DNA from: Candidatus Bilamarchaeaceae archaeon
Lineage (GTDB): Archaea > Micrarchaeota > Micrarchaeia > Anstonellales > Bilamarchaeaceae
Length of the DNA stretch: 64,000 nt
Assembly (NCBI GenBank): GCA_038870635.1
Contig: JAVZJR010000001.1
Location: 10,698 to 74,697 of the forward strand
Direction: 5' to 3'
The notes beneath the pieces were generated by a model, which had not been told where the DNA came from, ran no database searches, and saw only the letters and a program-made list of their open reading frames with translations. Positions 5,222 through 11,714 of the stretch are shown one piece after another. A program made the position numbers and the translations under genes. Position 1 is the stretch's first letter; every line of letters starts with the position of its first letter.

Positions 5222-5884
5222 ATCGTCTTTTGGGTTGTATTCGTAATCAATTAAAGAACGAATAATTTTTGCTCTTTTTTCACCTAATTTTTCAACTTTT
5301 TTTAGCTCTTCTTCACTAGCATTTATAACAGCGCGAACAGAACCAAAATGAGACAAAAGAGTGCGTGCGAGTTTTGGCCCAACCATCGGTAAAGATTCTA
5401 TAACTGCTCTTTGATTTTGTGAGGGAGTGAGGCTTTTTCTTTTGGCAAAAATACGAAGGGACAAAGGCTTTGCCAATTGAGCGTGCTTTGCAAGATGAAA
5501 AATTATATTTGCGCTTTCATTCAAATCTTTTGAAAAAAACAATGGAACACCGAAATCAGAAAGCACTGCCGCATACGCACCCATTACTGCTTCTTTTCTG
5601 ATTATACCAGCATCGCTTTCTCCTTCAATTAAAAGAACAGGATGGGAAAAATTTTCAACTAAATTTTTTAATTGTGTGAAGAGCCTGCCATCGATTATAG
5701 AAACTTCAAAGTCTTCTCTAGTTTTTCTCTCTATTGCAATGTTTTCAGAACACAAAAAATCGCCAACTTCAAGTTGTTTTATCTCTACCTCGGCCCCAAA
5801 CATATTTAAGATATTAACAAAATCTGGAGGCTCTCTTCTGTCAATTACTATTTTAGGTTTCTTTATCTCACTCAACTTACCCAC
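5216..5884 (-). CDS. xpf: XPF/ERCC4 structure-specific nuclease, short form (nuclease + HhH2, no helicase)
   Basis: IDRRE, VGDF...IERKT..DF, LPMVGPKLA..LL.HFGS, EKLGEKRA. Confidence 0.92.
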   Translation of the reverse strand: MGKLSEIKKPKIVIDRREPPDFVNILNMFGAEVEIKQLEVGDFLCSENIAIERKTREDFEVSIIDGRLFTQLKNLVENFSHPVLLIEGESDAGIIRKEAVMGAYAAVLSDFGVPLFFSKDLNESANIIFHLAKHAQLAKPLSLRIFAKRKSLTPSQNQRAVIESLPMVGPKLARTLLSHFGSVRAVINASEEELKKVEKLGEKRAKIIRSLIDYEYNPKDDP

Positions 5885-6558
5885 CGAACATAAGAGAGAA
5901 TTTCATCAAAGCTAATACTGCAACCATTAAATCTAAATGAGTATAAAGTTGCTTCGAGCATTTCCTTTTCAAGGTCACCATACTTGCTAAAAAATCCATT
6001 TTCATAACCAAGAATAAGCAATTCACTACTACGAAAAGCATTAAGACCGCGAGTATATTTAGAAAAATCCTCCATGTTAGTCTTATTAACCATTATATTG
6101 ACTTTTAGTTCATCTTCCATGTGCTCCTTTAGTCTAAATGGTGCTTCTATAAGCATTCTAGTGGTTCGCTCGTCAAGAACTATGCTTTCTGCACCTATTT
6201 CTTTAGCAAGAGCTATCATTTCTGTTTCACCCACGTCAACTAAATGAAGTGGTTTCCCTCTCGCATAAAAAAGATTATTGCCAACATTTAAGAGGTGGTC
6301 TCGAACATGAGTTAACTCATCAACGCGCATAATAACGATAACTTTATCTTCAATAGCTTTTTTTATCTTGAGAGCAGATTGCATATATTTTTTTATTCCC
6401 TTTCTCAACGGATACAAGACAACTTCTTCCTCTACGCTCGGTGGAATAACAAAGGTGATATTAAATTTATTTTTATAAAAATAAAGCAAATCAGAAGCAC
6501 AGGATGCGGTAAGAGTTATCAAAGACCCAGAATCACAAACCACATATCTTTCTTTCAT
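5872..6558 (-). CDS. PIN-like domain protein (DUF3368-like)
   Basis: VVCDSGSLI, IPPSVEEE, DVGETEMIALA, VLDERTTR match the PIN acidic tetrad layout. Confidence 0.7.
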   Translation of the reverse strand: MKERYVVCDSGSLITLTASCASDLLYFYKNKFNITFVIPPSVEEEVVLYPLRKGIKKYMQSALKIKKAIEDKVIVIMRVDELTHVRDHLLNVGNNLFYARGKPLHLVDVGETEMIALAKEIGAESIVLDERTTRMLIEAPFRLKEHMEDELKVNIMVNKTNMEDFSKYTRGLNAFRSSELLILGYENGFFSKYGDLEKEMLEATLYSFRFNGCSISFDEILSYVRWVS

Positions 6559-6568
6559 AATATCGCTC

Positions 6569-7114
6569 CTACTCTAAAAGTTTTCTAACTTTCTTTACTC
6601 TTTCACGAATGTCGACCTCTTCTTTTAATCTATCGAACATCATGCTGTCGCCCGCATACTTTTGGATTTCTTGTTGACCAACTCCACTAATTTCAGCAGC
6701 CAAACCAAGCGACACACCTTTAGCATAAAGTGTGGCCGCACACTTAACTCTTCCTTTGGTTAAAAGTCCTAAAAAGAAACGTTTGTCTTGTGCTTCCATA
6801 CTATTTACTATGACCTCAATTTTACGAAGCAACTCCAAAAATTCCTCATCTGTTTTTTTGCCGACACCACTTTCTATTTGTTTTAGGATGCCTTCTATCT
6901 TAACTAATTCTTTTTCATATTTATCTGTTAAAAAACGCGGCTTAGAGATTATTTTCGAGAGAACATAAGTAATAACGCTAAACTCAAAAAAAAGTTTGCT
7001 ACTTCGCATGATGCTTTCTGATAAAAAATCATCCTGTATTTTTCTTAATTTTTTCTCATTTCTTTTCTTGAAATTATTATAAAGTCCGGCTACAAGCTCG
7101 TGAAAAACCACCAA
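6569..7114 (-). CDS. Helical protein with C-terminal UPF0175-like HTH
   Basis: LYAKGVSLGLAAEISGV resembles the UPF0175 HTH; 10 bp upstream of the PIN gene. Confidence 0.55.
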   Translation of the reverse strand: MVVFHELVAGLYNNFKKRNEKKLRKIQDDFLSESIMRSSKLFFEFSVITYVLSKIISKPRFLTDKYEKELVKIEGILKQIESGVGKKTDEEFLELLRKIEVIVNSMEAQDKRFFLGLLTKGRVKCAATLYAKGVSLGLAAEISGVGQQEIQKYAGDSMMFDRLKEEVDIRERVKKVRKLLE

Positions 7115-7156: not shown

Positions 7157-7250
7157 ATATTTATAAATATTATCATGATATTATCATGACAGTTGCGTGA
7201 TCTTAGCGCAACGTTGTCATTGCAGTGGAGCGAAATCCCATGTAGAGGTG
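7157..7250 (+). promoter_or_regulatory. Divergent promoter with palindromic TATA, palindromic operator-like repeats and structured leader
   Basis: ATATTTATAAATAT palindrome (7157-7170); TATCATGATA palindrome (7171-7180) then TATCATGAC; hairpins 7186-7220 and 7221-7244; GAGGTGA SD before ATG 7258. Confidence 0.6.
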
Positions 7251-7257
7251 ATCATTT

Positions 7258-7701
7258 ATGGATGATAATAACAAAGATAAAATATATAAATCTAACGCAC
7301 ACGCAAGCAACAACAGTGGCATAAACTACGAAATAGAACGAGATATACAAGCAAACCTTGACAAGTTTCGAGACCCTATAATTTTAGGAGAACTTGTTTA
7401 CAAGCTCCTAGAGGAACGAGAAAACACAAACAGAATATTAAAAAACTTACTTGCAAAAATTGAAGCCCTAGAACAAAAATTAGAAAGCAAAGAGATAAAC
7501 GAAGAGGAACTACTTGTGCCAGAGATAGATGAAAAAATAATAGAATTCGTAAAGCAAAGGCAAAGAGTAACGGCCGAGGATGTTAGAGTACAATTTGGCT
7601 ATAAAGGTAAAAACGCTGCATCATCGAGGCTTAATCGATTGTGCGATATGGGTATATTAAAAAAGAAACAAGTCGGGAAGAAAGTTTTTTTCTTCCTTTG
7701 A
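7258..7701 (+). CDS. Coiled-coil + winged-HTH DNA-binding protein
   Basis: Central heptad repeat; C-terminal DEKIIEFVK...VTAEDV...AASSRLNRLCDMGILKKKQVGKKVFF. Confidence 0.75.
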   Translation: MDDNNKDKIYKSNAHASNNSGINYEIERDIQANLDKFRDPIILGELVYKLLEERENTNRILKNLLAKIEALEQKLESKEINEEELLVPEIDEKIIEFVKQRQRVTAEDVRVQFGYKGKNAASSRLNRLCDMGILKKKQVGKKVFFFL

Positions 7702-7716
7702 ATTTTTTGCTTATTA

Positions 7717-7899
7717 AGGCAAGGCAGAGGACGGCAAGCCAAAAACTCCCGCCTCTCAACCCCCCTATTTTTATTATTTGGCTGCCGGCCTCTCCACTAT
7801 CCTCCCACCAGAAACCCCTCTGGGGTTTCTAATATTAATTTAGGCAAGGCGATAAGAGTCGCGCGTCCTCCCATAAACCCAAACGCGACTCTTTCTATC
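7717..7899 (-). ncRNA. Candidate structured RNA (three hairpins, GGGAG motifs) downstream of EF-1A
   Basis: Inverted repeats 7726-7743/7777-7793, 7810-7818/7822-7830, 7855-7863/7884-7892; AGGCAAGGC direct repeat at 7717 and 7842; motif shared with 10321-10368. Confidence 0.55.
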
Positions 7900-9248: not shown

Positions 9249-9574
9249 ATACAATACCTCCTCTCGAATATTTTTTACCTTACCAGAATAAGGCTTAAAA
9301 TGAGTTTAAAAAAAAACTTTTATAAAGCTTTCCCTAAATAATTTATATAAGTGGTAAAAAATATATAAAAATGCAATTGAAATGAGAAAAAAGAGGTACG
9401 AATTTTTTGATTTCTTCCATTCTTTCTTTTCTAATCTTTTTATATAAAGGTATATAAGGCCCTTAAAAATAATATATTAAAACTCTGTTAAGTCCTAGAA
9501 ACACTTAGTTGCCGCCAACACTATTCATCATAAACATTAATAAATACTTTTATACACATTATTTCTGTGATTTT

Positions 9575-10285
9575 ATGGAGATGAAAACAAAAAAAATGGA
9601 AGGTAAAAAAGCAAAAGTTGAGAAAGATAATCAAAAGCCAAAAAACCTTGCCTTCGATACTTTGCTTGAAGAGGCCAGAAGAAACGAAATAAAAGCAAAA
9701 ATGCAAAAGAATATTGAATTAATCGAAGCGGTTAAAAAACGTGATAAAAAAAAGATAAGCGAACTTATTATGGCAGGAGCTGATCCTACAAAAAGAGACA
9801 TACTAGGCGGCTATCCTGACGAAGCCATAATAATAGCAAAAAAGACTCAAGATTATGAAATGCTTACACTCATAACTAACAAGATTATTGAATATTTTGA
9901 AACAAAAGGAAATGTGGAAAAAAAAGAAGAAAAAGATAAACTCAATAAAGTACTCATTATCGCAAGCGATATGTTTTTACCGCTTGAGAAGATCAAAAGA
10001 TTGGTAGAACTCGGCGCAAAACCAGATTCACAATATAAAGACTTTGAAAATGGACAGAGCGCATTCATAAAATGTGCAATAAAAGGAAATATAGTTGCTG
10101 CAAATTATTTTAAGGATTATATAAAAAATATATCGCATGAGGATGGAGATGGAAAAACTGCGATGATGCATGCGATGGCGCACAGACATGATGATATTAG
10201 ATGGCTAATTTTTGAAGAAATGGAAAAACGCAGAAAATCACCTCCAAGAGAAATAGAAGAAGAATTAATAATTCCAGATGATTAA
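9575..10285 (+). CDS. Ankyrin-repeat protein
   Basis: LIEAVKK.D...ELIMAGADP, LVELGAKPD, GQSAFIKCA..GN, DGDGKTAMMHA. Confidence 0.75.
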   Translation: MEMKTKKMEGKKAKVEKDNQKPKNLAFDTLLEEARRNEIKAKMQKNIELIEAVKKRDKKKISELIMAGADPTKRDILGGYPDEAIIIAKKTQDYEMLTLITNKIIEYFETKGNVEKKEEKDKLNKVLIIASDMFLPLEKIKRLVELGAKPDSQYKDFENGQSAFIKCAIKGNIVAANYFKDYIKNISHEDGDGKTAMMHAMAHRHDDIRWLIFEEMEKRRKSPPREIEEELIIPDD

Positions 10286-10313
10286 GTTTTTTTTAATACT
10301 TTACACAAAACAT

Positions 10314-10385
10314 AAAAACCCAAGGAGAGGATGGTACACCCGAAGGCTCCATCCACTCCTCCCACCAGCCTAAAAAGGCATCTGA
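10314..10385 (-). ncRNA. Candidate ~70-nt small RNA
   Basis: Minus strand: TTTAAA box (10403-10408), GCCT-TTTT-AGGC hairpin, GGUGGGAGG, 11/12-bp stem (10323-10334/10349-10360) capped by CC-UUCG-GG, then UUUUU. Confidence 0.6.
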
Positions 10386-10511
10386 TAGTTATGTTAAAAA
10401 GATTTAAATTACTTGATTTTTTTCTCGTGATAAAAAATACGCAAAAATTTATTTTAAAACACTAAAAAAATCTTACGAAAGAATTTTAAAACAAAAACGA
10501 TAAACAAATTT

Positions 10512-11714
10512 ATGGACGACCAGAAAATTGAGAAAATAATAAAATATGGAACAATAGTCGCTGTTTTGGGTCTGGCCACAATAGTAGTAGTTTTATTTTT
10601 ACAAGTAAAACTTCCAGTAATTGGCAAACCGAGTAATTGGCTCGTGAGCGGAGGGCTAACACTTACAGAAATAGAAGAAACAGAAGAGGAAAATATTTGC
10701 GATGATATGTGTTATTACAAAAAAGCTCTTCAAAACGCAACTTATTGTGATTACATAAAAAACGAAAGCGTAAAAGAGGATTGTTATGAGAAATGGGTAG
10801 ATGAAAGCTTAGATTATTGTCTTAAGGTAAAGGGAAACATTAGGGAAGAATGCATATACTACCACGCGAAAAAAAACGACAACATAGATATATGTAGAAA
10901 TGCAATAAATAGAAGCGCTTGCATGCTGTATGTTGATGATTGCTATAGCTACGAGGATAACACAGAAAAAGGCAGATGTTTCGCTTTTAAAAGAAAAAAT
11001 TACACTTATTGTTTAGATGACTTATGTTATTTTGATTTCGCTCTTTCAATAAATGAAAAAGAAATATGTAATATGATAAGTTCGCCTGCAAGAAAAACAG
11101 CATGCGTGTCGATAATAGAAAAGAATGATAGATGTACCGAATTAAATGTTCCTGCAGAAAAAGACTTGTGCTGGCAACTATATGCTATTGAATCGAAAGA
11201 TAGTGCAGTGTGCTTCAGAATAAGCAAAGTGAGTAGGTATGCTCTTAATTGCTTTGCATATTATGCGGCTAAAATGAAAGATTTAAGCTTTTGCGATGCA
11301 GGCGGATTTGTTTTAGATGATTTATGGAAATGCTATCGCATATACTCCCTTGAGAGTGGGGATCTCACTGGCTGTGATTTGATATACAATAAATCATTAG
11401 GGTACGCAACGACGAATATATATGCGTGTTATGCAGAGTATGCAAAAAAATATGGAAACCCTGCAGCATGTAATGGAATTCGTGACCTCTCTCAAATGAG
11501 AACTTGTTATGAAGGGTCGATATTAGGAAAAACAAACATAGATTATACAAAGTGCGCAGATATCCAGCTATCTATATGGAAAAACAAATGTTATACAGAG
11601 TATGCAAAATACAACAATGACCCCACTAAATGCGATTACATAACAACAAATAAAGAAGAAAGAGAAGCTTGTTATATCGCTTGGCGTGTTTATAATAATG
11701 TAACGTCAAGTTAG
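10512..11714 (+). CDS. Membrane-anchored Cys-rich repeat surface protein
   Basis: N-terminal TM helix then repeated ~25-aa C..I......CY...A units. Confidence 0.75.
   Translation: MDDQKIEKIIKYGTIVAVLGLATIVVVLFLQVKLPVIGKPSNWLVSGGLTLTEIEETEEENICDDMCYYKKALQNATYCDYIKNESVKEDCYEKWVDESLDYCLKVKGNIREECIYYHAKKNDNIDICRNAINRSACMLYVDDCYSYEDNTEKGRCFAFKRKNYTYCLDDLCYFDFALSINEKEICNMISSPARKTACVSIIEKNDRCTELNVPAEKDLCWQLYAIESKDSAVCFRISKVSRYALNCFAYYAAKMKDLSFCDAGGFVLDDLWKCYRIYSLESGDLTGCDLIYNKSLGYATTNIYACYAEYAKKYGNPAACNGIRDLSQMRTCYEGSILGKTNIDYTKCADIQLSIWKNKCYTEYAKYNNDPTKCDYITTNKEEREACYIAWRVYNNVTSS

Follow-up and report, generated by a model that had tools for sequence, protein, structure and literature searches.

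Analysis of a 64,000-nucleotide stretch of DNA (the window) from an archaeon of the Bilamarchaeaceae revealed a small structured element on the minus strand at 10314-10382, and comparison with other genomes established that it belongs to a real, new and order-wide RNA family with a specific, testable partner. Judging from its sequence features, the element is likely a stand-alone RNA gene of about 70 nucleotides. The predicted partner is the 3′ region of a gene (7258-7701, plus strand) encoding a 147-aa coiled-coil and winged-helix (wHTH) protein. We somewhat favour a trans-acting sRNA that would regulate the wHTH mRNA through its 3′ UTR; that the two RNAs pair, whether in this way or with the logic reversed as in the anti-Shine-Dalgarno (anti-SD) mimic considered below, seems quite probable.

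The window's own genome is designated G000 and the other genomes compared bear further G-numbers. The candidate lies in a 226-nt gap between an ankyrin-repeat gene (9509-10285, plus strand) and a gene for a Cys-rich protein of about 400 aa (10512-11714, plus strand), 29 nt behind the ankyrin gene and on the opposite strand. Its elements, from 5′ to 3′, are a TATA box, the 5′ hairpin, the near-invariant GUGGGAGG, a long hairpin whose 1x3 loop is conserved, and a U-tract. The minus-strand sequence quoted in the initial annotation was exact, with TTTAAA at 10408-10403, 20 nt, GAUGCC... from 10382 and U5 at 10318-10314. An A-rich BRE-like stretch lies upstream of the TATA box (10403-10408); transcription is predicted to start at about 10382-10379, and the C-rich 5′ arm of the 5′ hairpin (P1, GCCU/AGGC, 10368-10379) starts 27-28 nt past the first base of the box. 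P1 is followed by the seed CUGGUGGGAGGA (10357-10368), comprising a single-stranded (G)UGG toehold and GAGG.. within the lower stem; by the core GGAUGG-A-GCC-UUCG-GGU-GUA-CCAUCC (10329-10354), conserved across homologs; by the 3′ strand of the lower stem (CUCCUU, 10322-10327), predicted to be displaced upon target binding; and by a U-rich 3′ end and likely terminator (10307-10321), all on the minus strand. None of the differences listed for the DNA contigs of four runs falls inside 10314-10382.

The divergently oriented Cys-rich protein is likely secreted and has no Pfam or NCBIfam match; a membrane-anchored ORF of similar size is divergent from the sRNA in several relatives. The 15 nt of the U-rich end are identical to the last 15 nt of a dispersed repeat of about 102 bp, of which G000 has 15 core copies, often two in tandem (e.g. 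C2:43079, C4:11149, C4:161, C1:312268 and C5:44245). Copies of this repeat are found just downstream of same-strand stable-RNA genes, namely tRNA-Thr, tRNA-Lys, the tRNA at C4:261-345, 5S and SRP RNA.

The minus strand folds into the 4-bp P1 and a long hairpin (P2) at -28.2 kcal/mol (z -2.63), and 3 of 200 shuffled sequences were as stable. P2 had been described as an 11/12-bp stem; it comprises 15 bp split into segments of 6, 6 and 3, interrupted by a U.U mismatch and an A/GUA internal loop. The UUCG tetraloop does not define the family; it caps 26 of 74 homologs and is common but optional. As for the motif originally quoted, (G)UGGGAGG is conserved but the preceding CUG is peculiar to the window's genome. 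The assignment to the minus strand held, but folding alone does not decide it, the plus strand giving a z of -4.50 against -2.63. The minus strand was chosen because of a strand-informative pair (GU in 60 and GC in 11 of 72 homologs), the position of the TATA box and the U-rich tail across homologs. The core features are two G-C pairs, a 1x3 loop A/NNA, and G.Y and C-G pairs, and the core may be a protein-binding platform. The lower stem shows 77.8% pairing among homologs, with mostly one-sided variation.

A DNA search of 60 relatives found 14 clear homologs. With a first model, 119 of the order's 151 genomes were positive, 115 of them with one match. A second model matched 47 of 50 genomes of the order and had four matches in 101 other genomes of the phylum, of which two were thermosome gene tails and two were weak. 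The candidates beyond the order in G169 and G234 were rejected as thermosome gene tails, and one in G182 as an ORF's SD. From 80 matches in 82 loci, six rows were removed (two thermosome tails, one weak row without the core, one target element and two duplicates), leaving 74 homologs. A strict pattern run over 185,579 genomes gave 59 matches, none in bacteria; 52 carried Micrarchaeota, Micrarchaeia, Bilamarchaeum or Anstonellaceae in their titles, five 'archaeon' and two 'ainarchaeum'. The order carrying the RNA is probably Anstonellales. A homolog search in five f15/f19/f21 genomes and a pattern search in five f19/f21/f23 genomes, with 23 loci inspected, found nothing convincing, and none of 23 pattern matches in viral contigs passed the sRNA model.

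Covariation, the proposed check on the structure, was found in relatives: 10 of 14 pairs changed on both sides, a value reached by none of 500 shuffles. Of the cells, 90.8% were paired, against 85.0% when shuffled and 49-63% when slid, with 63 double changes. A TATA box and oligo-U, rightly pointed out at the outset as traits of an archaeal transcription unit, recur, the former 36-62 nt before the motif in 69/74 homologs and the latter as a U-rich tail in 62/74. P1 (dG <= -3) was present in 64/74, with a mean z of -2.8 against shuffles, its structure being kept and its sequence free. Conservation of sequence is confined to two parts, (G)UGGGAGG, whose first bases are largely unpaired, and the core GG-A-GC..GY-NNA-CC; within the motif, G occupies positions 2, 4 and 7 in all 74 homologs and U position 1 in 71. 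By a crude ORF test 69/74 homologs are intergenic; AUG occurs in 40/74 and no ORF is conserved. At the sequence level the family therefore has what a trans-acting sRNA should have: its own promoter and terminator, an intergenic place and no conserved ORF. G046 (L211 1201-1456) has two diverged tandem copies of the sRNA, and the 3′ region of its wHTH gene matches poorly.

The description as an undescribed stand-alone structured sRNA is supported by the covariation, one copy per genome, varied gene context and presence of the known RNAs elsewhere. No Rfam family reached its gathering score with the element (best 19.6 bits versus 44), and a scan of the window with Rfam 15 gave one tRNA at gathering level and otherwise chance-level matches near the locus. 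As the initial annotation had it, the element is not tRNA, SRP or RNase P RNA: no family model matched, and genuine SRP and RNase P copies lie elsewhere in the genome. A 5S rRNA was likewise rejected, with no model match for the element and the true 5S elsewhere in G000. Box C/D sRNAs have boxes C and D, and H/ACA sRNAs an ACA after the stem, a K-turn or K-loop and a guide pocket. Among the homologs, box C with one mismatch occurred in 8/74, CUGA in 3/74, ACA in 6/74 and GA in the bulge strand in 2/74, and the folds had no pocket, in keeping with the earlier dismissal of both classes. An IS or MITE end or other repeat does not fit either, the 859-kb genome G000 containing one full copy and nearly all positive genomes a single match. 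Other candidates also failed: no 8-nt Watson-Crick run exists between the element and SRP or RNase P RNA of which it might be a missing piece; no TROVE gene, as for a Y RNA, was found in the 89.6% complete genome; a 10-nt complement to 16S h23 in G000 fails to co-vary in G003 or G020; and an 8-nt complement to 23S H36 was present in 2/30 genomes. The SRP RNA of G000 (L038 1501-1759) is without helix 6, and no SRP19 gene was found in this incomplete genome; its RNase P RNA (L039 1501-1737) is without P12.

The lead to the partner came from weak additional matches of the second model in G047, G023 and G041, all at one place, the strand opposite the 3′ end of the wHTH gene. The mRNA strand there has a GC(A/G)AGGC(GACC) motif in 53/61 and hairpin loops with (UCA)CCUCCCAC. 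On the plus strand of the window, hairpin 1 (7718-7799) contains the GGCAAGGC motif and a stem-loop with CUCCCGCCUCUCA (7746-7758) in its loop; it is followed by site A, UCCUCCCACCAG (7800-7811), a perfect 12-nt complement of the G000 seed, and by hairpin 2 (7843-7893), with a second GGCAAGGC, a 10-bp stem and site B, UCCUCCCAU (7866-7874), in the loop. Each 3′ region has 1-4 sites. Among 71 wHTH 3′ regions, a site, by a pattern set after inspection of the data, was present in 57/61 from genomes with the RNA and 0/10 from genomes without it. The ten, rechecked with the second model (best E 0.11), represent five genera of two families, and the absence of the RNA is perhaps due to one or two losses.

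The sites were predominantly unpaired (median 0.97-0.99 versus 0.21 for other C-rich heptamers). The stems around them contain 25 G.U against 7 A.C, and therefore the fold is on the mRNA strand. Stem wobbles were used for this call because the whole-window strand energies, which favour the antisense strand (sense 14/57), were judged to be confounded by G-richness. Apart from the RNA's own antisense strand, the wHTH 3′ region is the best partner among 283 non-coding 3′ regions of G000 (-32.8 versus -26.2 for the next); two other 40-nt windows genome-wide gave slightly stronger pairing than site A. In a joint fold of the two RNAs, the lower stem alone gives way and the core is preserved. By sequence and predicted fold, the RNA thus has a conserved seed with a conserved, accessible complement in an unlinked target. 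A second contact, of the apical loop with GCAAGGC, was rejected (p 0.46).

The 3′ element is also clear in f15, f19, f21 and f23, where no sRNA homolog was found; it therefore exists without this partner or with a diverged one, and is older than the detected RNA. In these four families (L485-L502), GC(A/G)AGGCGACC and a C-rich site are located 3′ of the wHTH gene. Related C-rich motifs were seen in f16, f17, f18, f20 and f22; the single genomes examined from f13 and f14 had none. The wHTH 3′ region matched no Rfam family at gathering score, and the 3′ element counts as a separate, unlisted RNA family.

Departures of the seed from consensus are often matched in the sites of the same genome. Cognate duplexes were stronger than non-cognate ones (p 1e-4 overall, p 0.011 within families), with a perfect run of 10.3 nt versus 8.8 nt, and the cognate region ranked first in 8/61 and among the top five in 17/61. 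From the wHTH tree, 29 disjoint pairs, including 14 sister pairs, were chosen. The perfect run was for the pairing in 14 and against it in 3 (p 0.006), and the duplex energy in 15 versus 8 (p 0.105), or 5 versus 4 for the sister pairs; support from phylogenetically independent pairs is therefore moderate. Matched variants include A8:U in the window's genus and G5:C (G:C for A:U) in G044 and G065. The matches extend to 12 nt in G000 (CUGGUGGGAGGA), 19 nt in G050, 15 in G060, 14 in G047 and 14 bp in G030, and G098 has a 12-nt match with a shifted motif; pairing is poor in G008, G061, G015 and G046. Departures from Watson-Crick pairing at positions 0-11 were G.U or U.G in 49 cases versus A.C or C.A in 12, counted over kin that are not independent.

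Net binding, computed with a joint fold that cannot draw loop-loop contacts, was -11.7 kcal/mol for the wHTH 3′ site and -6.3 kcal/mol for the 16S tail in G000. The medians over 59 genomes were -8.5 for the wHTH 3′ site, -3.4 for the 16S tail and -4.4 kcal/mol for control windows of the same 3′ regions.

The wHTH gene is present in one copy in 147/151 Micrarchaeota genomes, a tally that counts one unpublished genome, G175, which enters nothing else. In the protein model (pLDDT 80) a long helix accompanies a winged helix; a fold search with this model returned generic winged-helix matches only, none of which reached E <= 0.001. A TATA box and TCATGA repeats, the likely operator, precede the gene (7160-7200, plus strand), and at least two TCATGA-like hexamers were found in 47/64 wHTH upstream regions. 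Because these repeats follow the TATA box, the upstream sequence suggests that the regulator represses itself. The operator was also sought at the sRNA promoter, where it occurred in 2/68, and this link was discarded. Divergent from the wHTH gene is a two-gene unit (5872-7114, minus strand) of a UPF0175-like gene (6569-7114) and a DUF3368 PIN gene (5872-6558). UPF0175 was detected in 36/49 homologs (best E 1.3e-4) and PF11848 on most homologs; the pair was divergent in 46/47 loci where it was seen, 91 having been examined, many of them too short. COG2405 (DUF3368) PIN proteins with a UPF0175 partner are predicted toxin-antitoxin modules (PMC5499597). The candidate module in the window has the same two domains, but unlike those modules is tied to a near-universal regulator gene, and its UPF0175-like partner has a long N-terminal extension.

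In the reading we somewhat favour, transcription from the putative TATA box would yield an RNA of about 70 nt, whose free (G)UGG toehold would dock on the loop-exposed CCA(C) of the wHTH 3′ region. The weak lower stem would then open to form 9-14 bp or more with the C-rich site, while the upper core would stay folded as a platform for a protein partner. The stability or translation of the wHTH message may be altered, so that the level of the regulator could shift either way. Pairing of this kind in the cell would place an additional, RNA-based control on the regulator, which likely represses itself and has a promoter region in common with the UPF0175/DUF3368-PIN pair.

The foremost alternative, which we consider unlikely, keeps the pairing and reverses its logic: the wHTH 3′ region, or a fragment processed from it, would be an anti-SD mimic that covers the ribosome-binding sites of many mRNAs, and the sRNA its sponge or antidote. 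The consensus site UCACCUCC and the 16S tail GAUCACCUCC are identical; two f15 genomes have a longer form of the site, UCACCUCCAA, as in the 16S gene. Such a mimic would also suit a genome that initiates with GAGGUG-type SDs and a 3′ element that predates the detected sRNA. Some SD regions contain GUGGGAGG, e.g. that of uL1 in G233, and the best G000 leaders pair with the loops at -20 to -23 kcal/mol; however, these leader matches are without a proper control, because any SD-led gene complements an anti-SD. Moreover, CACCUC is absent from the sites of G000 itself, ordinary SDs offer no match to the invariant CCAC half of a site, and the 3′ loop does not pair with the wHTH gene's own leader (-6.7 versus -6.4 shuffled). 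A bolder form of this alternative, rather doubtful in our view, is an RNA-only throttle: the message of a universal regulator would release an anti-SD-like hairpin masking ribosome-binding sites, and the SD-like sRNA would be the order's dedicated antidote, with the protein-binding core deciding the fate of the pair.

It is quite improbable that the RNA acts through protein alone, for example as a shrunken mimic of a uL1 site, with the 3′ match due to shared ancestry or a third partner. The core is conserved at the sequence level and resembles the order's 23S L1 stalk (GUGGGAGCC / GGC / CACCAC versus AUGG-AGCC / GGU / UACCAU); like the uL1 sites of 23S rRNA and the L1/L11 leaders, it is a short stem in which G-C pairs border an asymmetric loop containing a conserved A. 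According to a secondary description, uL1-binding sites have an internal bulge with a G-A pair and then an unpaired A (PMC3616713). The 1x3 loop A/NNA of the core, between G-C and G.Y pairs, has no G for such a G-A pair, and the element does not stand in front of an r-protein gene; it was therefore not classed as a uL1-binding RNA. Protein-only action also sits poorly with seed/site differences that are mostly G.U or U.G and with target stems that fold on the complementary strand.

The initial annotation had proposed an SD-like decoy, in which GGAGGUGA would pair with the 16S anti-SD and park 30S subunits. The 16S gene of G000 ends in GAUCACCUCC, the genome uses GAGGUG-type SD sequences, and the anti-SD is intact in the order; the motif does complement this tail, with a median duplex of -11.8 kcal/mol, stronger than 99% of 587 G000 leaders, and GGAGG occurs in 64/74 and GGAGGUGA in 22/74 homologs. 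The SD likeness is real, and the proposal is half right. Against the decoy role, the invariant UGG lies outside the complement, the SD part is buried by stem pairing (P unpaired 0.02-0.27), and the median net gain is only the -3.4 kcal/mol given above. The G000 form of the motif reaches -8.1 kcal/mol, weaker than the median, and that of genus g3 (GUGAGGGY) is a poor SD. A fixed 16S tail cannot account for seed changes that track the 3′ sites, and the better, co-varying partner is behind the wHTH gene. There is no conserved start codon, the AUG of 40/74 homologs being too near the SD, and other orders share the anti-SD without having the RNA. The ribosome is probably not the main partner, and a direct decoy is highly improbable.

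Several features of the 16S genes were recorded along the way. In families f13 and f14, the usually universal 16S 3′ control word was found in 1/71 genomes, and their 16S 3′ region is therefore diverged or unassembled. An insertion, possibly an intron, interrupts 16S h45 just before the anti-SD tail in G001 (L389). The 16S rRNA of G000 (L042) has two 56-nt expansions in place of 13- and 17-nt segments of the archaeal model.

It is scarcely credible that the element belongs to a neighbouring gene, as its terminator, leader or a DNA site, and is not an RNA gene. It does lie close behind the ankyrin gene on the opposite strand, and 45/74 homologs have a same-strand gene 16-390 nt downstream; but 22 face a convergent gene and 7 none, the flanking genes differ between genomes in both identity and direction (EF-1A, proteasome beta, UvrC, convergent genes), and a TATA box of its own, G.U pairs and UUCG loops speak for an RNA gene.

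Bacterial sRNA sponges and multi-motif decoys such as CsrB and RsmZ have SD-like motifs, sites repeated in hairpin loops and a displayed GGA. The present system is similar in its SD-like motif and repeated loop sites (1-4 per 3′ region), but here the loops show the anti-SD strand and not GGA, and the proposed partner is an RNA.

sRNAs that target 3′ UTRs have precedents in archaea, such as Pyrobaculum asR3/tpi and Sulfolobus sRNA257(1)/Sso1183 (PMC4152357). There, tpi has a conserved structure near its stop codon, asR3 is termed an antisense transcript, and about 60 nt are common to the Sulfolobus pair. The present RNA is likewise short and complementary to the 3′ region of one conserved gene; unlike them, it is encoded by an unlinked gene, its seed of 9-14 nt is buried in its own stem, the target sites are displayed in loops, the conserved core is separate, and seed and site have the shape of SD and anti-SD. 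The largely open-access literature searched described no Micrarchaeota noncoding RNA or sRNA of this kind, and contained nothing on DPANN covariance models, Anstonellales, or anti-SD decoys or sponges that matches this family. The kind is therefore not new, 3′-UTR sRNAs being known, and the family, its target element, the hidden seed and the SD/anti-SD form are absent from Rfam.

It is rare in archaea for a conserved regulatory RNA to come with a named target. The analysis yields a new RNA family, a second, unlisted RNA element, and a near-universal uncharacterised regulator with a candidate operator. These reduced genomes retain this RNA much as they would a housekeeping gene, which indicates a core process; if the anti-SD reading were true, it would be an unusual way of controlling translation.
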